Assembly: GCA_004431415.1 (NCBI GenBank)
Contig: QPMI01000453.1
Coordinates: 598,330-662,329, forward strand
Length of the DNA: 64,000 nt
Origin: Cyanophora paradoxa CCMP329
Taxonomy: Eukaryota > Plantae > Glaucophyta
Direction: 5' to 3'
In this document: positions 28,918-57,913 of the stretch, piece after piece
Numbering within the stretch: the first letter of the stretch is position 1
Layout: the number at the start of each line of letters is the position of its first letter
Position numbers and translations under genes: made by a program
Notes under the pieces: model-generated
What the model saw: only the letters and a program-made list of their open reading frames with translations
What the model was told of the DNA's origin: nothing
Database searches by the model: none

Positions 28918-29649
28918 GGAGGCCCTGAGGGTCGGCCAGGTCCCACCGTCCCCGCCAGGAGAGAGCAGCGATTGCGGACACACTCAGTGTGACAGAACAT
29001 CGAGACTCGGGCTATGATCCATCATCGTCATACCTCCGGCGGTCCTCCGCTGTGCCTCAGAGTAGGGTTTTTTACATATATATAAATCAGACTAAATTTT
29101 GTAAATCTGGTGGAATTTTCTAGCGGTTTTCATAAATGTCTAGGCGTCGACCTAGCAGGTGGCTGCAGGTCGGCCTAGGTCCGGGAATTTCGGCAGGGGA
29201 TTTCCGGGAATCCGGCCGCCAGCTCTCGCGGCCGGATCGCACGCGCTCTCCGGTCTCTCTGCAGCCTGAAACGCACGTTCGAAGTCCTCGAAAGCCCGCG
29301 CGGCTCGTCTTCTTCTCAGGCGCGGGGCCCCGCGAGCGCCTGCGTCCCGGCCCGCGCCCCGGCCCGTCCGCCTACAGCCTCGCCCTCTCGCACACGCACT
29401 CGGCGTAGTACTTTCTCACCGCGGTACGCTTAGTCCGCCCCCGCGCGCACTCCCCGCGCCGCGCGCGCCGTCGTCTCCTTCGCTGACACTCGCGACTCCG
29501 CTCGCCCCGCTGCAGCCAGCGCCGCACGACGCGCGCCCGACCGCGTACCACATCAATGCTCTGCGCACTCTTCGAATCCACGTTCATCGTCCCCCGAGCC
29601 CTCTTCTGCGCCGCGACCCGCTGACCGCCCCGTGCAGCCCCGGCCGCTG

Positions 29650-31480
29650 CCGCGCGCGGGGCCGGCGGGCGGGCACGGGGCGGGGCGGCGCTCACCCGCT
29701 CCCTGCGGCGCAGCTGCGCGGCGTAGCGCCGGTGCTGGCGGGGGCGGACGGCGGCGATCGGGGGGCCCGCGGCAGGTGCGCCGCGCGCCGGGCGGGCGGC
29801 GGGGCCGGCCCTAGCGAGCGGGGCCCCGCGGGCCCTCCCTGGGGAGGGCCCCGCGCGGGGCCGGCGGGCGGGCGAGAGGCGGGGCGGCGCTCACGCGCTT
29901 CCCGCGCGGCAGGTGCGGGGCGGCGCAGCGGCGATGGCGGCGGCGGCCAGCGGCGATCGGGGGCCCGTAGCAGGTGCGCCGCGCGCCGGGCGGGCGGCGG
30001 GGCCGGCCCTAGCGAGCGGGGCCCGCGGGCCCTCCCTGGGGAGGGCCCCGGCGCGGGCCGGCGGGCGGGCGAGAGGCGGGGCGGCGCTCACGCGCTTCCC
30101 GCGCGGCAGGTGCGGGGCGGCGCAGCGGCGATGGCGGCGGCGGCCGGCGGCGATCGGGGGCCCGTAGCAGGTGCGCAGCGCGCCGGGCGGGCGGCGGGGC
30201 CGGCCCTAGCGAGCGGGGCCCCGCGGGCCCTCCCTGGGGAGGGCCCCGGCGCGGGGCCGGCGGGCAGGCGAGAGGCGGGGCGGAGCTCACGCGCTTCCCG
30301 CGCGGCAGGTGCGGGGCGGCGCAGCGGCGATGGCGGCGGCGGCCGGCGGCGATCGGGGGCCCGTAGCAGGTGCGCAGCGCGCCGGGCGGGCGGCGGGGCC
30401 GGCCCTAGCGAGCGGGGCCCCGCGGGCTCTCCCTGGGGAGGGCCCGGCGCGGGGCCGGCGGGCAGGCGAGAGGCGGGGCGGCGCTCACGCGCTTCCCGCG
30501 CGGCAGGTGCGGGGCGGCGCAGCGGCGATGGCGGCGGCGGCCGGCGGCGATCGGGGTGCCCGCGGCAGGTGCGCAGCGCGCCGGGCGGGCGGCGGGCCGG
30601 CCCTAGCGAGCGGGGCCCCGCGGGCTCTCCCTGGGGAGGGCCCCGGCGCGGGGCCGGCGGGCAGGCGAGAGGCGGGGCGGCGCTCACCCGCTCCCTGCGG
30701 CGCAGCTGCATGACGTAGCGGCGGTGCTGGTGGCGGCGGACGGAGGCGCTCGGGGGGCCCGCGGAAGGTGCGCCGCGCGCCAGACAGGCGGCGGGGCCGG
30801 CCCTAGCGAGCGGGGCCCCGCGGGCCCTCCCTGGGGAGGGCCGCGGCGCGGGGCCGGCGGCGGACGAGAGGCGGGCGGAGATCACGCGCTTCCCACGCAG
30901 GTGCGGGCGGCGCGGCGACGCTGGCGGGGCGGCCGGCGGCGATCGGAGGGCCCGTAGCAGGTGCGGCGCGCCGGGCGGGCGGCGGGGCCGGCCCTAGCGA
31001 GCGGGGCCCGCGGGCCCTCCCTGGGGAGGGCCCCGCGCGGGGCCGGCGGCGGGCGAGAGGCGGGGCGGCGCTCACGCGCTTCCGCGCGGCAGGTGCGGGG
31101 CGGCGCAGCGGCGATGGCGGCGGCGGCCAGCGGCGATCGGGGTGCCCGCGGCAGGTACGCAGCGCGCCGGGCGGGCGGCGGGCCGGCCCTAGCGAGCGGG
31201 GCCCGCGGGCCCTCCCTGGGGAGGGCCCCGCGCGGGCCGGCGGGCGGGCGAGAGGCGGGGCGGAGCTCACGCGCTTCCCGCGCGGCAGGTGCGGGGCGGC
31301 GCAGCGGCGATGGCGGCGGCGGCCGGCGGCGATCGGGGGCCCGTAGCAGGTGCGCAGCGCGCCGGGCGGGCGGCGGGGCCGGCCCTAGCGAGCGGGGCCC
31401 CGCGGGCTCTCCCTGGGGAGGGCCCCGGCGCGGGGCCGGCGGGCAGGCGAGAGGCGGGGCGGAGATCACGCGCTTCCCCG
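29650..31480. repeat. GC-rich tandem satellite, ~197-bp unit, about 9 copies
   Basis: The anchor CCCTAGCGAGCGG recurs near 29809, 30007, 30204, 30403, 30600, 30801, 30991, 31187 and 31383. Confidence 0.95.
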
Positions 31481-31789
31481 CCAGCCGATGGTCCCCCGAG
31501 GGCCCTACAAGCTCGCGTCGACGCATGAAGATTCTTAATGTGGCCTGGGTCTGACCGCTGTGCGCGCAGGGACCCACACCCCCTGCCCCCGCCGCCCCCT
31601 GCACCCGGTACCCCTGGTGCGAGCCCCGCGCCGTGCTCCAGCTAGACCATGGCCTTCTTCCTTCGACGCGTCGACAAGCGCGTCGACGCGTAGAGATGAT
31701 TCCTTCTTCGAATTGTAGATATACGCATGTGTGACGCATGTGCAACGCATATGCAAGGCATGCGCAACGCATGCGCAGTGCACGTGTGT

Positions 31790-32700: not shown

Positions 32701-32997
32701 GGGCCTGGAGGGTGCGGGCCTTCGCGCTCCGCATTGCTGGCAGCGAGAGGCCTCCACGGGCAAGATTGCTAGAGGCCTAGGGGAGGGCGCTGCGCATCTC
32801 GCGCGGGGGGTACGGCAGCGCCTGGGCGACGGGGGCCCGAGGTGGGGCGGCCGCAGGAGGGGCTCTTCGGAGGCTGGCCCGGGGGCCTGGACGGTGCGGG
32901 CCTTCGCGCTCCGCATTGCTGGCGAGAGGCCTCCACGGGCAAGATTGCTAGAGGCCTAGGGGAGGGCGCTGCGCATCTCGCGCGGGGGGTACGGCAG
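32701..32997. repeat. ~180-bp tandem repeat; the second copy is truncated by the viral left end
   Basis: GGGCCTGGA.GGTGCGGGCCTTCGCGCTCCGCATTGCTGG...GGGGGGTACGGCAG occurs at 32701 and 32882. The first copy continues CGCCTGGG, while the second runs straight into ACACATATTG. Confidence 0.9.
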
Positions 32998-33092
32998 ACA
33001 CATATTGAAAAACGAATTTAAATCCCTCGTTCATCTCGATCGCTTCGCGATCTCGATTCACTCTGGATTTAAATTCGTTTTTCAATATGTGT
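32998..33092. other. Left terminal hairpin: 28-bp perfect stem around a 39-nt insert with inner stem GATCGC-ttc-GCGATC
   Basis: ACACATATTGAAAAACGAATTTAAATCC (32998-33025) is the exact reverse complement of GGATTTAAATTCGTTTTTCAATATGTGT (33065-33092). Confidence 0.9.
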
Positions 33093-33782
33093 TAATTTAA
33101 TACAAAAATACATATTTATCGATTAATTTCTTTAACTTTTTATGCAAACTTTGTATAAATTAATGCAAACTTTGTATTAAAATGATAAACGCGTTTAATT
33201 TAATGCATATTCACGATTGATTCAATCGATATTATATCGATAGATTATGTTCTTTGTCGATTACATATATAACTTCGATTGATTAACATTAAACTACTTA
33301 AAGAACGATATAATCGCGATTAATTCGCATAAATTCGCATAAATTCGCATAAACTCGATATATCTCATCGGTATTGAAGTAGACCACCGCCCATTTTGTA
33401 TCGGAAAACGCAAAAACTGTCACAGAGTTGCATTATGTCCAATTAAACAATCGATGGGATTGCGGATTTACATTTTTGCACCGAAAAAGTGTCACAGAGT
33501 TGCATTATGTCCAATTAAACAATTGAGAAGATTGCGCGATTTTCTATTGGAATATATCGGAACTGCATCATGTCCAATTAAACAATCGATGAGATTGCTG
33601 ATGAACATTTTTGCATCGAAAAACTGTCACTGAGTTGCATTATGTCCAATTAAACAATCGATGAGATTGCATATGTTCTATAAAACAGAATAATTGAGAT
33701 CAAGTGTGACAGGTAGTATTCAAATGATATTCAGTAAGAGATAGTTTTGTTTTTGAGAAAGTCAGTAAGAGGGGTGGAATGT

Positions 33783-34223
33783 CTGTGACGCCTGTGACGG
33801 CTGTGACGCCTGTTTTCAGAAGTCTGTCATTTTTGAAAATTTTAAAAAGTTTGAAAGTAGGTGTCACAGGCGTCACAGGCGTCACACTCAATTAAATTAG
33901 GTGTCACAGCGAAATTGCAGACCATTTCCAGTAAGACAACTTCGCATTTTCGGAAAGGTGGATTAATGGATAGTGTTTTGTAGGTGTCAGAGGTGTCACA
34001 AGACGGATTTCAGTAAGACAAGAATATATTTTTGAATATCTCAGTAAGAGAAAGAGATTCCATTTTTAATTGGGTGTGACGCCTGTGACGGCTGTGACGG
34101 CTGTTTTAAGAAGTCTGTCATTTTTGAAAATTTTAAAAAGTTTGAAAGTAGGCGTCACAGGCGTCACAGGCGTCACAGTCAATTAAAGAGGCGTCACAGT
34201 CAATTAAATAGGTGTCACACCCG
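33783..34223. promoter_or_regulatory. Two inverted-iteron modules in the left TIR (putative replication origins)
   Basis: Each is (TGTGACGSC)x3, a ~50-bp AT-rich spacer, then (GGYGTCACA)x3-5; located at ~33783-33909 and ~34066-34223. Function is inferred. Confidence 0.6.
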
Positions 34224-34278
34224 ATTATCTGACCATTTTCAGTAAGACCATCTGAAATTCTGAATTTCTCAGTGTCAA

Positions 34279-34680
34279 CTAACTCGGAAATCGCAATACT
34301 CTATGTTTCTCCGATTTCTCCAACCCTGAAAACACACCTGTTATTCTCTCATCTATCTCATGAGATACTCTCGTGGTTTTCCTCTCTGCTTCTAATCCAC
34401 AACTGAATATATCAATCGCCAACATACCTTCATTTGAGTAACAATGAGCAGTGCAATGGCTCTCATCCAGCAGAAGAACCATTGCAAAACCAGGAGGAGA
34501 AATACCACCATCGAAAATCTCGCAATGCTTGTGAACTACTCGAATACCTTGCTCTTGAATAATAGTTTGCAAGAACTGCATTAACCACCTGGTTGTTGTC
34601 TCCAAGTCCTCCATTCCTACTGCTAATTGGGTTCTGAATTTGTAATCCAGCATCACATGGAAGCCTCGATGAGTATTCAT
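34279..34680 (-). CDS. speD: Prokaryotic-type pyruvoyl-dependent S-adenosylmethionine decarboxylase proenzyme (AdoMetDC family)
   Basis: 133 aa; GFHVMLD...GFAMVLLLDESHCTAHCYSNEGMLAIDIFSCG retains the E-S autocleavage site, the HxxxH motif and the catalytic Cys. Confidence 0.9.
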   Translation of the reverse strand: MNTHRGFHVMLDYKFRTQLAVGMEDLETTTRWLMQFLQTIIQEQGIRVVHKHCEIFDGGISPPGFAMVLLLDESHCTAHCYSNEGMLAIDIFSCGLEAERKTTRVSHEIDERITGVFSGLEKSEKHRVLRFPS

Positions 34681-37226: not shown

Positions 37227-40200
37227 TTATACTGTGACATTTTTAATTTGGTCTATTTGACTTTGTAAATCTTTGCATTTCTGCGATAACTCCTTCACTG
37301 CTTCAATGAGAACAGGAATTAAACCTGTGTATTCAAGAGATAGGTAGCCATCGTCTTTTTTAACATTAACTACCTCTGGTATTACCTTTTGAACATCTTG
37401 TGCAATTAAACCTAATTTTGTTCCGTCTTTTTCGCTTCCAATTCGTTTAAAACTTACTCCTTCTAATCTCTCGATTGCTGAAAGAGCGCCGGTTATCTTT
37501 TTAATATCTGTTTTGTATCTTATGTCACTTCCTTGTGTTAAATACCCTCCTATCCACATCCATCCTCCATGATACATGTAACAAATATCAGTATCTTGTT
37601 CATTTCGGAATACAAGGGGAATATCTCCCCCTCCTTTCAAATATGTAGAAGTTTGGTTACCGAAATGGATACGATTATATCCATCACTTGAACTAAACCA
37701 AGTCCCCACAGATCCTGTTAAGATATTTGGTTTACTATAAACGTTATTCCAATGAATATAGCCGGTGTGACCACCATAACTATTTCCTACCCAAATTTTC
37801 ATGTAACTAATACCCATAATATGAACTCTTCCAATCTTTGGTCTAATCCGAATAGTGAGGAATCTATTTCCAAGATGTATTGGAACATTATTTAAACCAC
37901 TGTGGTTACCATCAGGCGATGTGGCGTATGGTTGATAACTATTCACTGATGTAATAAAAACTTCATTCCCTTGTCTATTAACTCCCCAAATTTCAAAAAG
38001 TCGTGAGTTAGTCCAAGGTAAATAGGTTAAAAATGCTGTTCCTGTGTGGTATCCATCGGGTATATCGAAGTCAATCCAAGCGGTAGAAGTTTCGTCATCA
38101 GATTGATTATTATGGACATATGAACCATAATTATAATATGGATCCCATGCTGTACTCCATGCCCATGTCCAACCCTCAGAACATCTATTAAATGCAATAC
38201 CTCCTACTGTTTTATCTGCTGTGTGAAACTTTGGGACATCATTACCGTTTATTTGGAGTTTGGTAGTAGCATTAATAGTGGATGCTGTAATAGTATTATT
38301 CACCCAAAAGTTACCGTTACCATATGATTTTAAGATTGCTGCATCCGCTGAGTTTCTAAATTCAATTGACACACCGTCAGCATTCGGTCTCCCTCGTATA
38401 TATGTGCAATCGCCATTACCAAACCAAATTCGCTCGACTGCATCTACTGATTTTAACCATGTATTTGTTGGCCATGTTGCTGTTCCTGGGAGGTCTGCGG
38501 CTGAGTAAAATGATGGTTTACTAAATACGTTATCCCAAGAGATCATGCCCAATTCATTATCAGTTGCTCTCTGTCTGCTCCACCCAAAAACACCCGTTAG
38601 ATAAATGCGACCTTTTCGACCTTGAATGTATATCTTTGTGTAAAACTCACAATTGATTGAGGCAAACAAAACAGTATTATGTGTCCCATCTTGATAAACT
38701 GCCTGGATTCCCTGATAGGCATTTACTCGTTTTAAGAAATGTTGATATCCATTAGTTGTTTGCCCATAGATATCGAAATATCTGCAATTATGCCAAGGCA
38801 TGTGCTGGATGTAAAATGATTTCATACCTGTGGGGACATTCCACCTCATCCAACAGCCGCTACAATCTTCATCATTTTGTGGTGTTGTATAACATCCTGT
38901 TTGTCCTGTTCTTGCGATCCAATTCAAATTCCAGTTATTCGCGCTTCTATCTGTCGAAACCACATCTAATTGATCGAATTCATAACCTTTTGGAATTGTG
39001 GTTCCACCAATTTGTAAAGTGGTAGCATTTACAGTTCCTGTTACAGTTCCACCTGTGAGAGGTAGATAATTCGCAAGAGCTGATGTTAATTCGGTATCTG
39101 TAACAAAATCTGTAACAGCTAACTGTAATTCTGTATTTGTAACATAATCTTTGTTTTCTAAATAATCATCTGTAACAACACCGGAAAGGGTTGTATTGTG
39201 TAAGTTTTTCGCCGCCATTCTCTGATTGACTTCTAAGGCGCCACCTGATGTCGTTTTTATCCACGCCATCTCACATTTCCCATGATCATCTGTGGGTTGT
39301 CCCACAACAGGAAGGTAGTTTACAACTTTCTCCCTTGTGAACACAATTTTAGGTCTTGCTCCATCATATGCGCTTTGATCTGTAACGTTTATTTGAATAG
39401 CTGCTGAAAAATCGGCTACTTGTCCTGTTTCTCCTGGGTGATAATTCGTTACATAGATACTTGGGAAAGTATCATTAACTCCCACATTAAAATCGCCATC
39501 ATAAACTCCATTAACAATTGGATCCCTGGGTAATCTTACTGCAAGAGTTCCCACCATTGGGGTTCCTGTTTGACCTGTAAAAGTCCCATTGAGACTAACA
39601 TAATGATCATTCAAATACAATCTTTCAGGTGTATTACTTGATTGGTAAAGAGTGACTCCATTAAAAACGTTTCCGATTGCATTCAATTGTGCAAAAACTG
39701 GCTGTTGATCTATTTCGTCCCAATTGTGCCTATGTGTGAAATCTGTTATTTGCGCTTTTGTGTGAGTATGGTCAAAATCTGTAATATCTGCTTTGACATG
39801 TTTGTGTGCAAAATCTGTGATTTGCGCTTTTGTGTGAGTATGGTCAAAATCTGTAATATCTGCTTTGACATGTTTGTGTGCAAAATCTGTGATTTGCGAT
39901 TTTGTGTGAGTATGGTCAAAATCTGTTATGTCTGCTTTAACATGTTTATGGTCAAAATCTGTGATCTGATCTTTGGTGTGTGTGTGGTTTTGTATCCAAC
40001 CTTGAACCACATTTGATGTTGTATAGTTTGGAATCACAGCATTTGAAGAGACGATTAAATTTTTTATATGAACATATTCAGCCGAAATTCGTAGATTATC
40101 AGGATAGTAAAGCGGCTGAGTTATTGGAAATCCATATGTCTGTTGAATGTAATATCTCACCTGTTGTTTCTCGCCTTCTGTCAAAACTCTATTGAAAACA

Positions 40201-43154
40201 ATGAGTTCTGCAAACTCACCCCAGTCGTGTCTTGTTCCAAAAAAATTAAATGTTGATGGCGGAAGCCAGTTTCCAGCTACTGTTCCTAAATGCTTCCCGT
40301 TCATTGAATATGATATACTTTCGGAAGTCACAGTGGTGTCCCAGTATGCATGTTTATAATTTGCGTATTCTTCATAAGGCATATGGACATGTGGAAGGTC
40401 ATTATATGTTGGGGTTCCATATTGCATGTTTATTCCAGCTGCTGTGTTAATATATCTATTCATGCCCATTTGCAAACAGGGGGGCTTACTGTCCAATCTA
40501 TAAAAGTTCCATAGTTAACTTCAAACACTCCTTCATCAGCAACATAAAATACTCCATTTGTGTATGAATCAGATCTCACATTACCCACATAGAAGAATGT
40601 TAACCCATTACTCCAATCCACGGTATCTGTTCTATTTGTGGTCAAACCAACACTTCCCGAACCAGAATTTAAAGTGATTTGATTGTTCAATAAAGGACTT
40701 ATCTTAAAGTATGATGTATTGGGTGAACTTCCTGTCAAAGCATACAAATTTGGAATGAATGGAATTGCTAATGTGGATCGGTTGCCGATTGGTTTTGCGT
40801 ATGCATTTTCAAGATCGGCATAACCTGATGGTTTAGCTGCCATTACACAATTCGGAATTGTAAATGCCGGATCTGTATTTGATGTAACAGGGTAATATGG
40901 TGTGTTATAAAAGACATCGACTTTTGTATTTCTATCTCCAATAAAAATATTACTTGTCACTGTAAGATTTCCATTCACTTTTAAATTACTCGTCTCTATA
41001 TTGCTACTGTAAATATTACTATTTACCGTAAGGTCTCCTGTGATTGTCCCACCAACAAGTGGAAGATACTTAGATAATTCATCTGCAAGTTCAGGTTTTG
41101 TAACATAATCTCCAAGCATAGCAAGAGTAACGAAATTAACGAGAATTACAGCCGTTAGGTAATCTTCTGTTACCACTCTCGAAATAGTCTCATTGTGAAT
41201 ATTCTTTGCAGCCATCCTCTGATTGGCTTCCAGAACCCCACCATAGTTTGTTTTAATCCATGCAAGCTCTGCCCTTCCATAGTTATCATTTGCAGTTCCC
41301 ACTATGGGAATATAGGAATATTTATCTCGACTGAAAACTATCATTGGTCTTGATCCATCTAGACTGCTTACATCTGCTACATGAACCTGTATAGCAGAGT
41401 TGTAATTTTGGTAGGTTGCTGGGTCTGTTGGGACTCTGAATGTATCTGTGGGAATGTCAGCCTCCATGTAGCTTGACACAAAGATATTTGGTATGGTTGC
41501 TCCTGGTTCTGGTGGTGGATTATAAGAGCCTGGTAATGTCCTAATATGAAGTGGTCCTCTCATAGCTGAATTCGCAAGTGTCCCATTCACATGAACATAG
41601 TGGTGATTCAAAAAGATCCTTTCAGGGACATTGCAAGTCTGGTAAAGAGAAACTCCCAGAGTAGCAAGAGGCTCAACTTTTGCAAATTCTGGTTGGTCAT
41701 TGATCTCATCCCAGGTGTGTTCATGGTTGCTTGCTGCAAACTTATCTGGAATCCCATCAATATCACCCCAATCATGCCTGTGGTCTTCTGGTGGGTATTT
41801 CTGTGGTTTGCCTAAGATCTCATCCCAGTCATGATTGTGATCCTCTGGGGGATACTTTGCAGGTTTATTATTAATTTGTTCATAATCAGGAAAGAACTCC
41901 CAGATCTCAGGTCGAAATCCATCTGGTAATAATTCTTCATGGGGTTCATATGGTTGCTCATAATCAACAACTGGTGGTTCGAGACCATCTGCTAAATATT
42001 CCTCATGGGGTTCATAATTCTGCTCATACTCATACTCTTGTGGATCTAAACCATCTGGTAAATACTCTTCCTCATTGGGATCATATTGATCATATTCATA
42101 CTCTTGTGGGTCGAAACCATCAGGTAGGTATTCCTCCTCATCTGGAACGAATTGGTATTCGTCAAGCTCCAAAATATCAATTTCAGGAGGTAAATATTGC
42201 TCATCAATTTGCTTTCTTGGTTCAATTATCGGTTTATTTCGAACCTGCTCCCAACTCACAATGTGTTGACCAAAAGGAACTGTCTCATCTGCTGTGTATT
42301 CTCTTCCTGGTTGCTTTTTGGGTGTTAAATCTGGTGGATCCCATGGTAGTGGGAAGGGAACTGGGACAGGTCCATAATACTCAAAGATCTCTCTTATGGT
42401 CTTCTCACTTACAAGTTTCTCTCCATTTGCATAGACATTGCTTCCATGGATATTTCGCCATTGTCTGGTTCTAATACCAAGATCTTTGGTGTTTGTCACC
42501 AAAGGTAAAAGGTGCCTATCCATTTCGACAAGGTCTGGGTGTAAATGAACTGTTACTGGTTGAGTGGGGCTACTGTTGACAGTGATAGACGCCTTATTCT
42601 TTGCTGTATCACCAGGTAGTTGGAAACCGAATTGCGCATTAGAAGCCGAATTCGCCACAATATCTCGTGGATAAACATTGTTAGTGAACTCGATTTTGTT
42701 GGTTTCTCCATGGGGGCTATCTGTAATATTTCGGGAATTTGTGCAATTGCATTTGATCCTTCATTATAGATTCTCAAACCACTCTGATGCCACCCTTCTC
42801 ATTTTGAACATTGAATATTAACCTACCACTATCGAATCGAGTTGGAATATCTGGATGGGTTCCACTGGTTTTCAGTTTTCTTGGTCTGCTCCTGGTTGCT
42901 TTAATCTGGGCTACTTGATTCGATTTCACATTCCCCATGCTGAAAGCAACACTCACATCCTCCTTTTCGGGATCCATTTCGTTTATTGAAAGTGCATGCT
43001 CTCTTGGGTGAGTCTTTGAGGGTTCATCTGCACTGTGATCAATTGAGATTGACCCTCTGGCTGTCAAGTTATCGAAATTCACATGTTTGTTATCTGCCTT
43101 CCCTCTTCCTGATGAGGGAATGGTTTGAAGGTTTGCTGGGTAATTGAAACTCAT
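37227..43154 (-). CDS. Giant fibre/spike protein (~1970 aa across three frameshifts) with HxH tail-fibre repeats and a C-terminal peptidase S74 chaperone domain
   Basis: ORFs 42774-43154, 42553-42777, 40460-42658 and 37227-40496 overlap end to end. Contains HTHTKAQITDF repeats and ends SDIRYKTDIKKITGALSAIERLEGVSF...GLIAQDVQKVIPEVV...YTGLIPVLIEAVKEL. Confidence 0.8.
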
Positions 43155-45209: not shown

Positions 45210-46625
45210 CTATTTCCTCTGCCCTCTTCGTAGATTGAATCGAGTTTGGGGTGCAGTATATGTTTCTTTGGTGGTTGAAAAGTCATTATACCACCTCTGA
45301 CTGTTGACTTCTGATAATTTCTGGGTTCCTGCTATGGTCAACTTCTTTAATTCTTTCTCTACTCTACCCTTCTTTTGTGCTCTTGCTTCTGTGAGGGTTC
45401 TTTTGGTATTTCACTTGCTTTTTCTATGCCCTCCTTTCTGATTGCTGAATCAACCCTGGCTTCCTCCTTTGCCTGTTCAAGAGCATCCACTGTGGGAGTT
45501 TCATGATACTCAACACCTTTAATGGGCAGCAGTTCATGAAAAGCGAATCTACCATCAACTATCTCACCACTGGGACTTCTGATTCTGAACTTGAAGCCCT
45601 CTCTGCCCTCCACACTATAAACAATTCGAGACCAATTAACCCCTTGCTTTGCAAATGGATTCTTTTCAACTTTCACTCTCACAAACATTCCAGGTTTCAG
45701 GGCATCAAGATACTCAATCGATTTCTTGAATCTCTGATCCTCCATATTCACTATCTCTTTGTAGTGGGCTTCTGTGGTCTCTGCTGGTTTTCTCTTGGTT
45801 GCAGAGTGAATGGTATTATTATAATTATACTCAATATCACCCAACACATCAAAAAATCGTGCAGTATTATTTGCAATGCAGTAGTTTGTGATCAATCTCT
45901 TGATCTGTCTGTTAAAGGCTTCAATTCGACCTTGGGTTCTGTGATCTGCAACATCACTTAGTTGATGCTCAATGAATTTTGTTCCCAAATAATCTGTGAA
46001 CAACACATTGGTAAATTCGCTTCCACTGTCACTCTGAATGCGAACAATTGGTCTGGGGACTCTCTGTTCAAGTTGCTTGAATGCTGCAAGTGTAGTAAGA
46101 GCACTCTTGTCTCTCATTGGAATTATGAACCCTGTTCTCAGGGTTGACTCCATTGCACTCATAAATGTATCATAACCATCATTCTGCTTTTTGTATGCAG
46201 GAAAGAAGAGCAGATCAATCACATAGGTATCAAGGGGTTGCCTTATTGGAATCATGGGATCTCTCTTTCGAGATAGGGTGGGTGCATTAATCTGGACGAC
46301 CTCCTGCTTATCATACCACTCTCTCATCTTCTTGTAGTTCTCCTCTGGTAGTTCCTGTCTCATTGCAGTAATCCCTTGTAGCCTGTCCTGGGATCATAGA
46401 ACTTCTTAGCAATCTTCGACTCTTTTGGTGCTGTCTCAGCTGGGAGGGTCTCTGGATTAATTGCTTGACCATCTCTGATCTTTTCAATATTCGACTGCTC
46501 TTCTCCTCCACTGGAACTGTGATGGGCAGGATATTCCCTCGATCTTCAATTGCCTCTTTTCTTACAATTCTGGGTGGTTGTCTCAATCCTATTTGTGTAG
46601 AAGGCATCTTTACCTTATCTCTCAT
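45210..46625 (-). CDS. Retroviral-like (rve) DDE integrase of Polinton type, frameshifted near both ends
   Basis: Core ORF 45359-46363: YVIDLLF...RIQSDSGSEF...QGRIEAFNRQIK...YNNTIHSATKRKP. An upstream frame adds KFYDPRTGYKG. Confidence 0.92.
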
Positions 46626-46790: not shown

Positions 46791-49700
46791 TTAGAGCCCA
46801 AATGGAATGCTGTGAATTCCATCGTCTAATATCTTCCTTTTGCTATCGAGTTGGTTTAGAGCCACCCTTCTGCTCTCCAAATCATATAGGTTGTGGTCTT
46901 GCCTTCGCTTGTTTACTACTGCTACTGTTTTGGTGATGCCTTCAAACAGGCATCTCTTGAAATCATCAAAGTGAACCTCTTTGGAGGAAGTCCCAGACAT
47001 CTTTATTTTATCAAAGGTCTCAGTTCTGAAAGCATAGAGTTTCGATCTCAGACCTACATACTCCACAATCTTTGCATTTGGAAACTCGTTTTTATATTTA
47101 CCTGGAATCAAACGATTGCTCCTATCAAAGAGAGGGTGGGTGGGATCATAATTACTGCAATCCAGGTGTCCAGCAATTCGCTTCATCTCATTATTTAGAT
47201 CATTGGTATGCAGCAGGAGACAGAAAGAATCTGTATCATGGAATAGTAGCTCTGCTGTTTCCCAAGTTCTCCTCACCACATCATAAAAGAACCTGCTATT
47301 GTGGAGTTTCGCGAAATCCAGCACAAAAGCACCAATTGCAACAGGTTTATCTAAGTGAACATGCTTGGAATACATCTCAAAGGCAACAGCATTTTCGTTT
47401 AATACATTGGTTGCCTTGATGAGTGGACTTGCAGCATATTTCTTGCAAAGTTTCTCACTGTTTGCAATCTTTACCACAGAGCGACCCCTGCATGATTCGA
47501 GGCATTTACCATAGATTGCATTGTTCATTAATTTAAAGAAGTCACTCTCGAATCTGGACATAGATTGGCGCCTCAGTTTCGTATTTAGATCAATATAACT
47601 CTTCATGAATGCAGAGGTTGCAAATGAGAGAACCCTGTGAACCTTCGTGATTATAATACCTTTGCTCACAAGATAGATCAAGAGAGGTTGGGAAATCACA
47701 TAGTTATTTTGGGTGAGAATGTTGCAGTGAGTTTGGGGTCTTTGCTTATCTTCTCACCTGTGATATCCAGTAACTTTCTTTGATACCCACCCAGCATTTC
47801 GGTGGTGACATGTCTTTATTAACTACAAGTGGAAAATCGTAATGATCTGTGAGAGTTTGTGGGTATTCCAGGTCAACTTCAATAAAGGCACTTCGTCCTT
47901 GGGTCTCTTTAAGTGCCTCTGAGACATCTTCCCATCGAAAATCTCCAATGGGCAGTTCTTGACTGAGAGCAAAACCATACAGATTATTTGCATCCAAGAG
48001 AACTATATGGTCATCTGGGTTTTCCACCTTTGCATATCGAGTAGGCATTGTAGCAAACCCACCTCGAATTGCTCTCTCAATGAATTCGTATTGCCCTACA
48101 TCACTGATCTGCTCGATCTTTGCTCTGGTATAAATGAGCATTGCATCCCAGGATAATCCAGGAGCCGAAACATAGTGGGCAGGATCCAATCCATATTGGG
48201 AAAACGCCAATTCTCGGAAAGTCTGGAATTTACTCATAAGATCACCAGAATCCACTGCCTGGAAGTCCATGAAGTGCGAAGCATCTATGAATTTCCACAT
48301 GCCCCATTGCAGGGAGAGGTATTGATCGAAATTCTTGCTCAGGATCTCAACACGAAGTTTATCATCTTGCTGTGCAATTTTGCGGAATATTTCGTGTCCA
48401 CATTCATCCATGTGATCCACCACAATTGCTACTTTCGTTTGCTTTGAGATTCTCCTGTGGAGGTTGCAGTTTCGACATGCTTTTCCAATAAAGCTCCTGA
48501 TTGATGACAATGGTCTCTACTGGGAAATTCTCATGGGTAAATCGTTCAGCACAGATATAACAGTGTTTAGTGATCTTGTATTGTGCTTTCTGCTCTTCTG
48601 TGAGTGGGTGCATTGGAATATTGGTGAATAGAGTGCGGATTACTTGGGGTCTGATCTCTGTGAGAGTGGTAAACAGAGCACCAAGTGGATCTGATCCCTC
48701 GAAATAATGAGAGATCACCTCATCCCCCATCACAACTGTTAGAGAAACCGATTTTACCTCTCTCTTGCTGCGGTTCTCATCAATTGGAACCGAGTGACTA
48801 TCCATTTTCACATAGCAGATAGTGGGAAGCCACACAGTTTTGCGAAGATGTTGAAGCCCAAATGCAATGTGACTTCCAGATTTGGGCATTTACCTTTGCT
48901 CTCCCTCCAATCAATGCAGCGATTGCTTCTAATGAATCCAGCTTCTCCTGAGTTCTGAAACGAGACAGGCAGGTCTCACATAATAAATGCGACCATCATG
49001 GGCTTTATCAAAGGTGGTTTTCAGAGTCGACTCAGAGACATATGGTGATATAATGCCTCTATCATCCTCTTCGTTTTCGATTAATAAAAGGTTAATCTTG
49101 GTCTTTCTCCTCGGGTTGCTGGATTGTGAGAGGATAGAAGCACTGTGCTTGATTATCTGCACCATAAATGTTGATTGAGTTCAGGGTTCTGCTCCTCAAA
49201 TCGATCAATGATTCTGCATCACAGGCAACTGGAAACTGGATGCCTTCGAAATTGAGTTCGTTTAACCATCTTCTATACTGGCTGGGTTCATTGCTCTTGT
49301 GTTTATTAATGTCTTTCGGTGCAGGTAAGCCAAGATTGCATACTTGAAGCAGTCTTGACCATCAATATTCTTGACATTCACAGTTGCTCTCTTTATCCAA
49401 TCCACTCAGGTGTTGAGAAGAAGCAACCACCCACAGGAGCATAAGACATTATACCACTCTCAGCATCTCATGCGATCCAGTCTGTAACTGTCACCTGCAT
49501 CATCTGTTCCTGCATTGCTTGAAGTGCATTTCGCAGTTCAACATCAATATTTCGTGATCTTGTGATGACAAAGTAATCACTATAAATGAATTGGTGATCC
49601 ACACCCTTGGATCACTCACTTTGGTGAATTACAAATGAAGGTCAACCGAGTCTTAATTGCTCTCAGGTCTTGGAGTTTCTGTCTGAGTCTCTGGGTAGAG

Positions 49701-50038
49701 TAGTGCAATTCTCTCCAAGAATTCAATCCCATCTTGGATAACCTCCCCTCTTGCTCGATAGGTAACCAAGAGTATGCTTTGTTCATTGCTTCCCCATCTT
49801 CAATCTCGGTTCAATTGTCCCAACCTTAAACCTTCATCCCTGAATTCCTCCATTTCTCAAAACGATCATAAGCGATTGTAATTTCTGTGAGTTGAGATAA
49901 TCTTGGTCTCCTATCCAGGATTGCTGCCTGGCGATCATATTCGAATTCTGTAATATCACCAGTAACTAAAAGGGTTCCTAAAAGACCGAGTATTTCGTTT
50001 TTCTTTTCTTTGATGATTCTATTTGATTGGCGGGGCAT
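46791..50038 (-). CDS. Protein-primed family B DNA polymerase (Maverick/Polinton type), split by multiple frameshifts; N-terminal limit uncertain
   Basis: RATVNVKNIDGQDCFKY, HCYICAERF...CRNCNL (endo VII-like Zn finger), YGLDPAHYVSAPGLSWDAML, AIRGG, LLDANNLYG, FFKLMNNAIYGK, FHDTDSF and GLRSKLYA. Confidence 0.92.
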
Positions 50039-50093
50039 CTTTTACTTTAAGGGAACATATTATTTTGGGCGTTTTAAACGCATTTCGCATTTT

Positions 50094-50285
50094 TCAGGTT
50101 CTGATAATTCGCACATTCGTGCCTTTGGGGACATATACATTCACTGTGTCGAGTCTGCTTGCATAAACACGCTTCTTTTGATAGGTTCTACCATAACCTG
50201 CTCTGATCTTTGCAATATAATCCGCCACCTCTGCAATATCATTCTTTTCGACAAGCTGCTGCCGAATTTCATCAAAATAATCCAT
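50094..50285 (-). CDS. Hypothetical protein (63 aa)
   Basis: ATG ORF between the internal iteron module and pPolB. Confidence 0.45.
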   Translation of the reverse strand: MDYFDEIRQQLVEKNDIAEVADYIAKIRAGYGRTYQKKRVYASRLDTVNVYVPKGTNVRIIRT

Positions 50286-50425
50286 TTTCTGTCTTAGTCA
50301 AGTGAAATACGCAACGATCCCTTAAATCGCCAGTCAATTTTTGTCACAACACAACGATTTTCGATACGTTTTTATATTGTCCGATTAGAATCGAACAGTC
50401 ATCGACCCACAGGGGGAGTCTGTGG

Positions 50426-50585
50426 TTAATTGGGTGTGACGCCTGTGACGCCTGTGACACCTGTTTTCAGAGGTTTGTAGATTTTTGAAATTTTAAAAAG
50501 TTTGAAAATAGGCGTCACAGGCGTCACAGGCGTCACACTCAATTAAAAAGGTGTCACAGCTGTCACACAAACCATTTACAGTAAG
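50426..50585. promoter_or_regulatory. Internal inverted-iteron module (putative origin), a diverged copy of the TIR module
   Basis: TTAATTGGG(TGTGACGCC)2TGTGACACC, AT-rich spacer, (GGCGTCACA)3CTCAATTAAAAAGGTGTCACAGCTGTCACAC. It lies just past the helicase stop codon. Confidence 0.7.
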
Positions 50586-50604
50586 TTTTTAAAAAATAAG
50601 AAAT

Positions 50605-52996
50605 TCAATCAGTATTAGAATCGATTCTGTTTTGTTTACTCATCCCACCTTCAACATCACTGTCATCCACCAACTTGCGACTATGCTTCTTTTTGATCCC
50701 AAAGTAGCCACGAGCAAGAACACCATTGACTCGCTTTCTCTCAGCCTTCACATTAAAGACTTCGCGAAGTCTCTTCAAGATAGTGCATTCTGTGATTTTC
50801 TCATCAGATTTGCCCATGTGATCATCTTAAAGTGACTGATAATGGACTCACTTGTGGCGAAATCCCCTTGACTCTTGGTGAGTTCATAACTCTCACGAAT
50901 CCATTCTCCAATCTTGTCATTCTCATTGAAATATTCAACACCTTGATCAACAATGGACTGGGGTGGTTTGGTGACGAATTCATTGAGAGAATGGGTTCTC
51001 CACATTTCCAGGAGAATGGACATATGCGCCATTTTATAATCGTCATCATTCTTCATTAGGCGCATGAGAGTGGTGTCTGCTTTCTTCTCACCAGGCTGAG
51101 GATCGACCTTGAAGACATTTTCGAATCGGTAGTAGATAATTCGCCTTTGAATTGCTGCATCTGGTTTACTGATTCCCAAGTTGTCATTTGTGGACAAGAA
51201 CAACTGGAACATGGGAATGAATGTAACAAGATCTTTGAAAAGAGCTCGAACCTTCATCTCATTCCCACCAGTAACCTGTTTGATTTTGTTCAGTTGAAGC
51301 ATATCACCATCTTCTGCTTCATTACTGAAAACAATTCGTTTACCAAGAATGCAAGCGAGTTCTGGGGAAGCCTCTGACGAACTCTTCTTGGGTTTAGTCC
51401 AATATGTCATGTCCAGTGACCCATAATACTCACCAAATGTGTCTTTCACCAACTCTTGGAGCAGTGATTTCCCATTTGCTCCAATTCCAGTCCAGCAAGT
51501 GTATCTCTGATTTTCTGTCAAACCACTCAGGGCATAGGCGATTAATCCCAGCATGAATTCGCGGTCTGTATCCGATTCAATAATATCTGCATAGATGGAT
51601 TTAATCTTTGCAACCTTCTCTTGGTCAATTTCTGTGGTGTAATCGTAGCCAACAGTCTTACTCACCATATCATCTGGGAGTCCCTGTCGAAAAGTCATGG
51701 AGTTCAGGTCAAACACACCATTTGTAAATCCAATGATGTTGGGAACAGTATCAAGTCTCTCGAAAAAGGTCTTGTCACTGAACAGAACTGAAAGATCAGA
51801 CATAAGTGCAGTTCTGTATGTAGTCTGTTTGAGGCTCTTAGCAATTCCCAGCAGAATCTTTGACCTTTCCTCCAAGGAATTGCGGTTCTCTTCATCACGA
51901 AGTGCTCTCTGTGCGAGTTGAACAGAACGTTGAAGATAAACTGGACAGACCTTGCAGCTCAAACAGAGAAAGATTCGCTTCCCAGTTTCATCCATCTCCC
52001 AAATCCCACATACATCATTGAACTTGAACCAGGTCTTGTTGGAATACTTGTATTTGTCTTGCAGAACAAGATAGGCAACCTGTGCAACATCATAATGGGC
52101 ACCATCAGATCCAGCAGACCGATCAATCAGATTTTCGATCTTCACATCTGTCTCTTCCTTCACACGAACTGTGATGCTTCGCTTTTTGCAGTTTGCACTG
52201 TAACTCGAAACAATATATTTGTCCTTCTCCTTCCCTTGAACAATATACCAATTGTTCGAGTCATGGCTTCCCTTGCAGCAGGGACAGATCAGACCTTTGT
52301 TCTCAGCAGTGAAATTGTATCCCATCTTGGTCTCATTGATGATTGTGGGCAAGATGAAACCGAATTCTTCCAGTTTAGAAAGAATATGTTTCTGCAAATT
52401 CTCCTCAGCGCACCTCTCAAAATAAGAATGTGCACCTTTGGGAATTCGTAGTTGTCAACAATCCACTTTTGCAACTCAGCAGTAGGTTCATTTAACTCAC
52501 ACTCAGATGCCCATGGCTCTCTGATCCATGTTTTGTTGGGACTTGGACAAACATTAATTACCCCAGCAGTCCCAGTGGATGCAATCGTTTTGCAGTCGAT
52601 CTTGGGGTTTCCTTTGAATGCACCTGCTTTATCCCAGATCTTAATGGTGTCGAATTCAGCAGGTCGAGCGAAATAAGCATGATATCCTTTTTTGGTTTTA
52701 GCAAGTGGATTAACACCACCGAAATCATCAGGGAATTGCTCCTCGAATTTGGCGAAATCCTCCTCTTGGTCGAAGTCAATAACCATGATATTACGAGCAA
52801 GAATGCCCCAAGCAGTATATTTACCGGATTTCAGGGCTTCATCGAATTTATCCCAAGTCCAGGATCCGTCTTTATGAGCGAAAAGCGGTCTCTTGGTATC
52901 AGGATCAACAGGAATTACGAGATTCTCAGACAGGACATCGTCTTCACGAAGCCAGTCAACAAGGCGTTTCAGGGATTTCTTGGCGGCAGCGTTCAT
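50605..52996 (-). CDS. Bifunctional primase-polymerase (Prim-Pol/AEP) fused to a D5/P4-like SF3 helicase, with two frameshifts
   Basis: N-terminal WGILARNIMVIDFD...KTKKGYHAYF; Zn finger CPCC..HDSN; IGFTNGVFDL; Walker A GIGANGKS; Walker B IVFSNE; FLSTND; C-terminal RVNGVLARGYFGIK in ORF 50605-50817. Confidence 0.9.
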
Positions 52997-54642: not shown

Positions 54643-55425
54643 TTACAAACCTCTCTTATATCGCATCAGTTTATTCGAATGAACACCACTCTTGACCTCT
54701 TTGGGTGCTTCCTCTTTCTGTGGAGATGGTAGTTCATCTTCTTTCTTTTTGGGCTTCCTGTGGAACCGAGGAAATGGGAAATCTTTGACCAGATCCGCTT
54801 TATCAACATAATAGTTCACCGAATAATTTGCAGAAGACCACACAATATATTGGTAAGAGTGCACATACTCCTCAAACATCTTATAGAAATCGTCCTTGTT
54901 TCGCATGATATTATATTCCTCTTCAATGGCTTCGAGTTCTTTGCGATTTGCAGCACTCAGGAACACAGCATAATCCGAATTTACTCGAATTGTTGAAGAA
55001 ACCTTCCTCAGCTTCTGTGTGATGCAGATAATCGAGATTTTCGAATGGCGACCTCTGGAATAAAGAGATCCCACGATTTTGTCTCGGGTCAAATCAATGA
55101 TTTCGTTGTCTATTAGATCATCTAAGACCACACACAGGTGATTGACAGGTTCCCCTTTTTCGATTTTCTCCTGCCTTTCATCCAGTAATTTGGAAATGTA
55201 AGCAGCATCCCATTTCCCGAGTTGCAATGTTGCAACTGCATCCCAGAAATGATTGAAGGACGTCCCACTCACAACAAGAACAGTATCAATCTTTTTCGCA
55301 TCATGCAGCTGTTTCAACCAATATTTCACACATTCTGACTTGCCTGTTGCAGACTTTCCTATGAAAAGAGCACGAAATGGTGGGGTTATCATCTCAGATG
55401 CAACAAATTCTTCTAAATCGTTCAT
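54643..55425 (-). CDS. A32/FtsK-HerA family genome packaging ATPase
   Basis: Walker A FIGKSATGKS, Walker B LCVVLDD, and SRGRHSKISIICITQ...IRVNSDY. Confidence 0.93.
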   Translation of the reverse strand: MNDLEEFVASEMITPPFRALFIGKSATGKSECVKYWLKQLHDAKKIDTVLVVSGTSFNHFWDAVATLQLGKWDAAYISKLLDERQEKIEKGEPVNHLCVVLDDLIDNEIIDLTRDKIVGSLYSRGRHSKISIICITQKLRKVSSTIRVNSDYAVFLSAANRKELEAIEEEYNIMRNKDDFYKMFEEYVHSYQYIVWSSANYSVNYYVDKADLVKDFPFPRFHRKPKKKEDELPSPQKEEAPKEVKSGVHSNKLMRYKRGL

Positions 55426-55494: not shown

Positions 55495-56460
55495 TTAGAG
55501 AGATAAGAGGAATTGTTTAATGCACCGCTCAATATCAGTTTCTGTGTATGGGATGCGCAAGAGTTGGATATTGTTGGCTTCACAATAGCGGGTTTTAATC
55601 TGATCACGAATTTGCAGTTGCTCAAATGCTTTTTCTCCACCAAAAACCTCTACTGGTTCGAAGTGTTGGCGACCATCATACTCAATTGCGATTTTCAGAG
55701 CGGGAATATAGAAATCGAAGGGAAGTGCTTTTGTTTTACGACAGTCTTCAAAGGTAAATTGTCTGTTGTAATCAAGCCCAATTTCTTCCAAGACTGCTTC
55801 AATTGCAAGTTCACCTTTTGAGTTCTTGCAACGAGGGCAACCTCTATTCATCAGATGATTACAAGGAAGCTGATCGAATTCATTTGAGCATTTCATACAC
55901 TTGATGGATATTTTTGTTTTCTTGTTGACATACTTGACCTTGGAATAGTCATAGCGATCTCCATGGACTTCTTTCGCTTTCTCAATAAATAATTCTGTAT
56001 TATTTCGCCTGTGATGACCATTTTGTTGGAGAAAACATGCTTTGCACCCTTGCTTTCTCAAATGTGCATATGGTGCCTGCTCAAAGGTCGATTTACACCC
56101 ATTACACTTGATCAGAACTTTGCTTCTTGCATTCATATATTCAACGGCAGAATAATCATATCTGTCACCATGAACTTTCTTTGCCTCTTCAACAAAGGTG
56201 CTTTGTGGCTTCTTGCGATCATCATGAAGTTGTTTATCTCTGCAAGAAGGACATCCACCATTATTAACTCTTTTAGCCATGCAAATATGATTTCCAGCAA
56301 TTGTCTCAAAGTATTCCTGCAAGTTTTGCAAAACAGAGTAACCTTTGCATGGTATGACTTGTAAACAACCCGATCATATCCAAATTTATCTCCATGGGCT
56401 GCTTTGCTCTTCTCAATAAACTGTTCGATCGAGAGGGGTTTCTTTGTTTTATTATTGTAG
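55495..56460 (-). CDS. Three Zn-ribbon (DUF723-like) repeats plus a Vsr/DUF559-like PD-(D/E)xK endonuclease; frameshift near 56320
   Basis: Repeats F(I/V)ExAKxVHGDRYDYS...C..C...HL..GC..C, then LPFDFYIP..KIAIEYDGRQHF...DQIKTRYC...LLRIPY. An upstream frame supplies FIEKSKAAHGDKFGYD. Confidence 0.8.
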
Positions 56461-56542: not shown

Positions 56543-57913
56543 TTATAGATTGATTCGCCTCAGGCCGTCCTTATCGACTATAATGAAACTGTGCATGAGA
56601 GCACGAACATTAACAGTGATTGTCTGGTCAGAAGGCATGTATAGAGTGAGGAAAGAGGAGGAGGAGTTCGTGAGATCAACATAGCCAGACTGGGCAATGT
56701 TGCGAATCGCTTTCTCTCCATCAACACAGAATGGTAGACCACTGAGGACATATTTGTCTGCAACCTTGTCCATATTTGAGCACTTGAAGGCATCCGCAAT
56801 TAATTCGGCACCTTTGAGGAGAGGGATGGGCTCAGTAGCATAGAGACGTTGACCATTAATTTCAACAGTGAAAGTAATGTCTTTTGAGTTAGCATGCGTT
56901 TTTAGGACACTGTGGGAACCATTGAAACCATCTATACCTGCGGCATCACGAACTGAAACAAGAAGACCATAGACAAGACCAGAGATCTGTGACAGGTTAA
57001 TACGATTTGGCTGAGCATTGCCTTTTGCAGCAAAATTGACACTGTCTACGAAACCAATATCCAGAGCAGGAATAGCCATACCAGTGGTCTTCACCTTCTC
57101 AATGACAGTAGCAAACAGTTCATCAGAAACATTAATAGCATGCATGTAAAGACGAGGAGAAGTGACTTTAATTTCGGGGGTTGTTCCAGAGATGGTGAAA
57201 GTGGTGATTTGTTGACCAACATGGGCAAGAGTAGCATTAGCAGTAGCACCAAGTCCATCATCCTCTGTCTTATCAGCAGCTGTTCCACCAACAACTGGAA
57301 GAGCACGACCACCATAAGAAGTCTCAACATAACCCTTTCCAGCATCCTTGAACCAGACAGTTACCACCATTTCTCCTGAGAGAGCACCAAGAGGTAGGTA
57401 GTGGTTTAGCCATGGGACTGGGATTTCAACAAAGAATGAACCACCAAGTCGGTTGGTTCCATGAGCAGGGATACCATGAACCATTCCCATTGAACGCTTC
57501 TTCTTGGCGAGTTGATCCTCACTGTAATAGATAAGAGGGAAATGAGCAAGGAAATCAGAAGGCACATGGAATGTGTAAGATCCATAGGTGATTTCAAGTC
57601 GAGAGACAAGAGCACCAACTGGGCGAACGTATCCATTGCGAACAAGGTCGGTATCACCAGCAAAAGTGACAGCTGGAAGGTCAAACGCAAGTTCGAGTTT
57701 TCCACAGAAATTGTAGCGAGGGAGCTTGAACGAAATGCGATTTCCAGCATTATTCTCGAAAGTGTTGCTTGGGTTCACAACAACAAGAACTGGCTTCGAC
57801 TTGGATTCAAGACCAAGCATGAGAGAGTTGTCCAGGAAGAACGCCTTGGCTTCTTCCGGGGTTGTTAGAGCTTCTTTCAGAGAAAGACGTTGGAGGGTCG
57901 AAGTAATATCCAT
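56543..57913 (-). CDS. Major capsid protein (double jelly-roll), ~456 aa, intact
   Basis: Size and position between the ATPase region and the pentons; NAGNRISFKLPRYNFCGKLELAFDLP...GALVSRLEITYG resembles DJR N-termini; QSGYVDLTNSSS near the C-terminus. Likely start is MDITS at 57913. Confidence 0.8.
   Translation of the reverse strand: MDITSTLQRLSLKEALTTPEEAKAFFLDNSLMLGLESKSKPVLVVVNPSNTFENNAGNRISFKLPRYNFCGKLELAFDLPAVTFAGDTDLVRNGYVRPVGALVSRLEITYGSYTFHVPSDFLAHFPLIYYSEDQLAKKKRSMGMVHGIPAHGTNRLGGSFFVEIPVPWLNHYLPLGALSGEMVVTVWFKDAGKGYVETSYGGRALPVVGGTAADKTEDDGLGATANATLAHVGQQITTFTISGTTPEIKVTSPRLYMHAINVSDELFATVIEKVKTTGMAIPALDIGFVDSVNFAAKGNAQPNRINLSQISGLVYGLLVSVRDAAGIDGFNGSHSVLKTHANSKDITFTVEINGQRLYATEPIPLLKGAELIADAFKCSNMDKVADKYVLSGLPFCVDGEKAIRNIAQSGYVDLTNSSSSFLTLYMPSDQTITVNVRALMHSFIIVDKDGLRRINL

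Follow-up and report, generated by a model that had tools for sequence, protein, structure and literature searches.

A terminal hairpin with strand-specific G·A pairing in a Polinton-like virus integrated in the genome of Cyanophora paradoxa, and its likeness to actinobacterial telomeres

The window, that is, the whole stretch of 64,000 nucleotides of Cyanophora paradoxa CCMP329 DNA analysed here, contains one whole element of 28,825 bp (32998–61822) with a GC content of about 40%, embedded in eukaryotic host DNA of about 65% GC; the composition steps down at position 32998 and back up at 61822. The element is a Polinton-like virus (PLV) integrated in a eukaryote genome. It is bounded by terminal inverted repeats (TIRs), the blocks of which are 96–97% identical and which have the length known for Polintons and PLVs, and it carries genes for an A32-type packaging ATPase as in PLVs, an rve integrase and a likely jelly-roll capsid protein (Table 1). 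Among the other genes are those for a fibre that carries an S74 chaperone and for a patatin-F5/8 fusion; a patatin-discoidin fusion is known from glaucophyte and rhizarian PLVs (PMC12220804). With Polintons (Mavericks) and PLVs the element shares the TIRs, the rve integrase, a protein-primed DNA polymerase B (pPolB), the A32 ATPase, the likely jelly-roll capsid and the patatin-F5/8 fusion of glaucophyte PLVs, but it differs in the possession of both pPolB and a primase-helicase (AEP-SF3), in its NCLDV-like divergent capsid, in the absence of a target-site duplication at this copy, and in the lack of a detected Ulp1 maturation protease, for which no Pfam match was obtained in 26 ORFs, a scan that a broken or divergent gene could escape.

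Table 1. Location of the repeats, palindromes and main genes of the integrated element. Positions and strands refer to the window.
Feature	Position	Strand	Remarks
Left terminal inverted repeat	32998–34374	+	~1.4 kb
Right terminal inverted repeat	60231–61822	-	~1.6 kb, with one additional ~280-bp unit
Left terminal hairpin	32998–33092	-	95 nt; - strand is 3'-terminal here; flush with element end
Right terminal hairpin	61728–61822	+	95 nt; + strand is the 3'-terminal G·A strand
GCTTCGC (invertron motif GCTXCGC) on 5' strand, GCGAAGC mini-hairpin on 3' strand	33042–33048	+	Mirrored at 61771–61777
Iteron palindrome, TIR copy	33780–33900		~120 bp, imperfect; inward-facing 9-bp iterons around A/T core
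Iteron palindrome, further TIR copies	34063–34190, 60415–60545, 60700–60830, 60985–61115
Iteron palindrome, lone internal copy	50424–50562		Just downstream of primase-helicase gene; 25-bp perfect stem
rve (DDE) integrase	45359–46363	-	Pfam rve, E 0.0011, below cut-off; NCBIfam IS481 family, 7e-14
Polinton-type protein-primed PolB (pPolB)	46791–50040	-	~8 frameshifts; upstream boundary uncertain
Prim-Pol (AEP) and D5-like SF3 helicase	50775–52996	-	Two overlapping frames; Pfam Prim-Pol 2.3e-5, D5_N 2.2e-10; TIGR01613 1.6e-32
A32-type packaging ATPase	54643–55425	-	Pfam Pox_A32, 3.5e-11
Likely jelly-roll capsid	56543–57913	-	ESM feature score 0.98 to Capsid_N / Capsid_NCLDV clusters

The capsid candidate gave no Pfam match; the ESM clusters matched by it carry Capsid_N at 12–18% and Capsid_NCLDV at 13%, the recognition value being under the threshold, its AF2 model has a pLDDT of 33, and a distant relative, P0008, shows a weak match to Capsid_NCLDV (0.012). 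The protein is highly divergent, with eight relatives among 1.84 billion representatives, and its features are nearest to those of NCLDV-type capsids. One close relative each was identified for the capsid protein and the ATPase, both without DNA context, and a search for related loci of capsid, helicase and integrase found none. The region 37227–42523 is occupied by two long fibre-like genes with internal repeats of 36 bp and 66 bp, the first gene ending in the S74 chaperone domain. The gene for S-adenosylmethionine decarboxylase (34279–34680) has its 3' end inside the left TIR, and this end is duplicated at the right TIR boundary (60231–60326). The TIR interior (33415–33680 and 61215–61410) contains tandem repeats of ~65–72 bp, which are very variable between copies in the host runs. 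A promoter scan gave a result at chance level.

The pPolB has 255 relatives and is of the Polinton type. A profile made from 40 of its 82 full-length relatives detects the part that extends from a vOTU-like segment (near 49400, E 1.3e-6) to the end, and the region expected to hold the terminal protein gave no significant match to the same profile; the TP-vOTU architecture of pPolB has been described (10.1101/2024.03.18.585575). Upon frameshift-aware alignment of 46794–49381, about eight frameshifts and no in-frame stops were detected, a pattern of indels alone that speaks for assembly error, as in the case of the hairpin (see below). Decay of pPolB is nevertheless possible, because the 3.2-kb fibre gene, which is longer and more homopolymer-rich, is free of frameshifts. 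Within 46791–52996 the frameshifted pPolB gene lies beside the AEP-SF3 helicase gene, and a replacement may be in progress there. No HUH Rep/NS1 nickase, RuvC-type (A22) resolvase, protelomerase or tyrosine recombinase was found among 26 ORFs scanned with Pfam and 21 with NCBIfam, and neither database gave a match to Tap or Tpg. Candidate nucleases are the product of 55495–56280, which has zinc fingers and weak DUF5889/DUF2726 matches, and an endonuclease VII-like insert present in relatives of pPolB. In addition to these enzymes, the element carries six copies of the iteron palindrome, which are candidate origins for the primase-helicase. The internal copy adjoins the primase-helicase gene, an arrangement suggestive of a gene-plus-origin module that arrived as a whole and then invaded the TIRs.

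The 95-nt hairpins at both ends of the element, the subject of the original prediction, were confirmed, with the outer and inner stems as described there and the mirror copy at the right end. The left hairpin consists of a 28-bp perfect outer stem, a 39-nt insert, an inner 6-bp stem and a 3-nt loop, and no other perfect short-range inverted repeat in the window is as long as its outer stem, the runner-up measuring 25 bp. A chance fold was rejected, as 0 of 200 shuffles folded equally well for each of the four terminal 95-mers, with folding z-scores ranging from -9.0 to -13.8. The arms of the insert, formerly regarded as non-pairing, hold five further Watson-Crick pairs beyond the two stems, and on the 3'-terminal strand G·A pairs occupy all the remaining positions. 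In position-by-position pairing, the 3'-terminal strand is thus paired at 47 of 47 positions (39 Watson-Crick and eight G·A), whereas the same eight positions are T·C mismatches on the 5'-terminal strand. Of the eight G·A pairs, one closes the tip and the others form two tandem GA/GA steps and a triple step; the probability that eight of eight non-Watson-Crick positions are G·A was estimated post hoc from base composition as ~1e-6. When both strands of the window were scanned for rods made of Watson-Crick and G·A pairs, the two ends alone were detected, each on its own 3'-terminal strand. The sequence GCGAAGC at the tip is extraordinarily stable and nuclease-resistant and is present at single-strand primase origins (PMC13037366), and in tandem GA/GA steps the sheared stacking is far stronger than that of canonical steps (PMC8163305). 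A nuclease-resistant rod with sheared G·A pairs is the predicted fold of the 3' strand; the energy gap between the two strands given by the folding program is only 1.4 kcal/mol.

The sequence of the ends was checked with short-read contigs from five of 23 listed host runs, dated 2012 and 2024. The right end as assembled contains an A4 run and a T6 run, but in four of four runs the contigs carry one A inserted behind 61737 and lack one T at 61807, and contigs of 3.3 kb in single copy across the right copy's own junction carry the one-base gap. Since the A4 and T6 runs are corrected by these contigs as assembly errors, the right end is most likely the exact reverse complement of the left end, both ends being identical in sequence. 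The terminal 28-mer had been counted four times; its exact form occurs twice in the window as assembled, and the count of four holds after the right-end correction. The right host junction is bridged in four of four runs, and no bridging record for the left junction was found among the records listed. An assembly artefact as the origin of the hairpin was rejected, because the hairpin is present in all five runs.

The depth of contigs that lie in the hairpin exceeds that of the junction contig from the same run 41- to 68-fold, a rough ratio of depth rather than of copy number. Substitutions are listed in 33 rows for the next 608 bp (33093–33700) and in none for 32998–33092, for which 5.2 were expected (P ~0.006, one row in host DNA being excluded), a contrast biased upward because differences close to contig ends go unlisted. 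Being flush with the host junction, present in multiple copies and conserved relative to the adjoining TIR, the hairpins are structured genome ends under selection and exceed what protein priming needs, in agreement with the original prediction. The hairpin is, however, not invariant family-wide, as X3 record 28, a minority contig with a depth of 935, differs in one letter and has another stem. Among loose ends, a variant insert was identified with three GCGAAGC units and purine-only flanks, which by eye can be drawn either as a rod with all unpaired positions purine-purine or as three fingers; a second variant end carries five changes midway along the 28-bp arm, the inner arm alone being seen.

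At both ends of this copy the purine strand of the insert is the 3' strand. The same orientation is seen in X17 record 22, which crosses the outer arm between the purine insert and another host flank. A contig of 55 letters and depth 1414, X17 record 18, continues without a break from the TIR interior through the full stem to the first two letters of the purine insert, which argues against a common flipped isomer, since such an isomer would fork the graph at this point (the word length of the contigs, as deduced from the tables, is 31). No loose ends before 61728 were found among the 24 rows listed of 32. In X12 and X3, by contrast, contigs are interrupted at the expected position of the fork or next to it. 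The evidence for a single insert orientation, contrary to flip/flop, is weak to moderate.

No target-site duplication was detected at this copy, with end shifts of 2 allowed, in the range of 5–6 bp that is strictly expected for Polintons. The left flank (32960–32997) is an interrupted GC-rich tandem repeat of ~185 bp, of which the continuation is absent, and the right flank (61823–61860) is an unrelated host reading frame, of which a paralogue is present in the runs. The two ends may therefore derive from different insertions, joined via recombination or mis-joining. Two of ten listed flank rows are reverse-complementary over exactly six bases, a hint of the family-level 6-bp duplication typical of rve integrases. 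Flanks beginning with GC seemed to be favoured, but this was attributed to a display bias, because flanks that match the window align further. The host DNA upstream of the element (29600–31500) contains a tandem array of GC-rich ~199-bp repeats.

The original prediction compared the ends with the flip/flop hairpins of poxviruses, asfarviruses and parvoviruses. The element does share with the parvovirus 3' hairpin and the vaccinia telomere a terminal fold-back with imperfect pairing that could serve for priming or for closure of the end, and the foldable terminal palindrome with a paired 3' end of the parvoviruses is present. The comparison is not supported as the closest analogue, however, with respect to the mismatches, which are extrahelical bases in parvovirus and vaccinia but all G·A on one strand here, with no second isomer seen; the optimisation of a single strand, which is the 3' strand at both ends, the unforked X17 record 18, and the absence of HUH Rep and RuvC-type resolvase from the ORFs scanned also speak against it. 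Covalently closed telomeres of the poxvirus type, with flip/flop isomers cut from concatemer junctions, are highly unlikely. Vaccinia hairpins occur as two isomers handled by a resolvase, and their mismatches are essential for maturation (PMC8956199), to which the imperfect palindrome and A/T-rich stem of the element would correspond, and selection on one isomer might suffice to fix the G·A pairs. Against this model stand the evidence for one orientation, as an integrase acting on the last bases of the 28-bp perfect stem would be blind to isomers, the failure of the Pfam and NCBIfam scans to find any of the resolving enzymes listed above, and the position of the whole palindrome flush with host DNA, which would arise only after a nick-and-copy step.

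A role of the palindrome solely as a cruciform or integrase-binding site in excision and integration, or its origin as an inert by-product of strand switching, is scarcely credible. The flush junction and the encoded rve integrase would agree with the former, and accidental annealing is named as an alternative in a preprint on viruses of Halocafeteria (10.64898/2026.07.28.741278), but a cruciform would extrude both strands, so that the strand-specific G·A design is unexpected, and accidents yield perfect palindromes rather than eight of eight G·A pairs kept in an independent insert variant.

A closer match than the poxvirus and parvovirus ends is the actinobacterial telomere with 3' overhang, which would work alike, although the element is not a member of that class. 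The linear replicons of Streptomyces are copied from an internal origin and their 3' overhangs form hairpins closed by sheared G·A pairs; the overhangs are patched by terminal-protein priming, and fold-back also templates the repair of truncated ends (PMC5449611, PMC4513846). The GCTXCGC motif is known from the telomeres of Rhodococcus (PMC7276702), and the present hairpin has it at its centre, on the same strand. Within the first 200 bases of each of the four plasmid ends compared (pRHL1, SAP1, pSV2 and pBD2), G·A-closed hairpins were found in all four plasmids, 14 on the 3'-terminal strand versus two on the 5' strand. Three of these plasmids also have G·A steps that are double or triple, and GCGAAGC itself occurs twice in pRHL1. 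The element has in common with these invertron telomeres GCTXCGC on the 5' strand, the GCGNAGC tip on the 3'-terminal strand, the tandem and triple G·A steps and the back-pairing of terminal bases; the invertron arrangement of a GNA-loop hairpin with G·A on the 3'-terminal strand is thus present as a sequence pattern, its sheared geometry being predicted. The actinobacterial telomeres differ in that several short palindromes are packed within the first ~180 nt and are GC-rich, whereas a single rod of 47 positions with an A/T-rich stem is found here, and in that they use Tap/Tpg, whereas the element is a eukaryotic integrating virus without matches to these proteins. Between the 95-mer and the plasmids, chance-level partial matches only were obtained, with no homology past the motif, and the likeness would reflect convergence.

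Terminal palindromes have been reported for virophages of Halocafeteria seosinensis (subtypes 1, 2, 5 and 6) and for PLV subtype 4, together with a self-priming model, and they occur there mainly with replication genes other than pPolB (10.64898/2026.07.28.741278). These elements resemble the present one in the palindrome at the TIR extremity beside the host junction, the rve integrase and the primase-helicase genes, and differ in that the palindrome of subtype 5 measures 52 nt against 95 nt here, where pPolB is present as well. The main text of the preprint (10.64898/2026.07.28.741278) makes no mention of mismatch, flip, sheared, overhang, loop or Streptomyces, while its figures and supplements may differ, and the accessible portions of PMC11296320, PMC12747079 and PMC8502044 hold nothing further on PLV hairpins. 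Terminal palindromes in such viruses are therefore already known, and a search of the open-access literature did not reveal the strand-specific G·A design.

The 3' end of the element very probably exists and functions as a folded single strand, a conclusion common to three readings, namely the patching of an overhang, self-priming and the capping of a displaced strand. Self-priming had been raised in the original prediction and is a live rival, although a somewhat unlikely one. In such a rolling-hairpin scheme, the paired 3'-terminal T would prime, and a nuclease would reopen the end asymmetrically with one orientation kept. The fold-back is exactly flush, with the 3'-OH against an interior template, the optimisation of the 3' strand would be accounted for too, pPolB may be dead, and both candidate nucleases could serve for reopening. 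The same model was proposed for the Halocafeteria virophages and PLVs (10.64898/2026.07.28.741278), and the Streptomyces literature remarks on the likeness to parvovirus 3' ends (PMC5449611, PMC4513846). Against it, no HUH Rep/NS1 nickase was found in the ORFs scanned, and simple terminal resolution would flip the insert at every round, contrary to the single orientation seen. Asymmetric resolution as in MVM would be required.

Strand displacement primed by protein as in adenovirus, with the rod capping the 3' end of the displaced strand and loading the second-strand enzyme, is distinctly unlikely; the internal palindromes would play no role in making the overhang. This scheme is consistent with the Polinton-type pPolB with its vOTU-like motif, the ACAC tip and the preserved orientation, and G·A mini-hairpins are primase signals at single-stranded origins such as those of G4 and RSF1010 ssiA (PMC13037366). 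However, the local hairpin would lose out to a 1.4-kb panhandle, the scheme does not account for the primase-helicase or for the iteron palindrome next to it, and pPolB is frameshifted.

The explanation preferred here, tentatively, is that the 95-nt palindrome is a telomere, that is, a folded 3' overhang that remains after copying by the primase-helicase and is filled in, probably by protein priming, without inversion. The proposal starts from the observed position, pairing pattern, strand polarity, multi-copy conservation and gene content, and its replication steps are conditional. The free linear genome would be copied by the Prim-Pol/SF3 helicase from the internal iteron palindromes, and the 3' ends would be left single-stranded, so that selection for folding would act on the 3'-terminal strand only. 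The rod would then shield the end, lend its inner arm as a template for lost terminal bases and mark the end for the priming enzyme. The gap would be filled from the very end without inversion of the insert, most likely by terminal-protein priming with pPolB, and the ACAC tip is compatible with slide-back initiation. The rve integrase would insert the open duplex end produced in this way, in which the complete palindrome has a single orientation. Patching of an overhang would explain the strand polarity, the kept orientation, the two replication systems and the integrase-ready open ends together.

The eight G·A pairs out of eight, the unique rods, the likeness to the plasmids, the conservation, the GCGAAGC units of the variant, the single orientation and the presence of both enzyme systems point to overhang patching as a possible, still provisional, account. 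Several observations count against it: it is predicted from integrated copies, the free genome, the 5' protein and the overhang not being among the things observed; pPolB is broken by about eight frameshifts, with a terminal-protein region that gave no profile match; the Halocafeteria palindromes occur mainly with non-pPolB genes, so that protein priming is perhaps unneeded (10.64898/2026.07.28.741278); and no homologue of Tap/Tpg was found in Pfam or NCBIfam. Furthermore, rods were present at 0 of 40 ends of 28 viral contigs with related pPolBs, although most of these are not true ends, TIRs being found at both ends in two contigs only. The flush 28-bp stem buries the 3' template and would be an ideal self-primer, and the X12 and X3 contigs break near the fork, X3 record 28 having its different stem. 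It is doubtful, though conceivable, that the full combination holds, in which a eukaryotic virus would have independently evolved a Streptomyces-type telomere, with primase-helicase copying, a G·A-zipped 3' overhang and terminal-protein patching, and would have retained both systems.

The analysis bears on the question of how PLVs with a primase-helicase finish their linear ends. The strand that carries G·A tells which strand becomes single-stranded in replication, and the kept orientation separates end patching from the rolling-hairpin and closed-telomere models. The design points to a convergence of eukaryotic viruses with actinobacterial telomeres; if true, the Streptomyces-type telomere would add a third strategy of end replication to those of the Polinton lineage, and the element would represent a transition state in the replacement of pPolB by primase-helicases. 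The G·A signature can be screened for across the catalogued PLVs and virophages. The exact terminal and inner motifs gave no match in viral contigs and metagenomes. The motif of the variant insert gave one match in the viral contigs, which was set aside as it is internal in a contig of 16.6 kb and not at its end. This unrelated viral contig (L002, 601–624) carries tandem GCGAAGC units in a non-coding stretch away from the ends.
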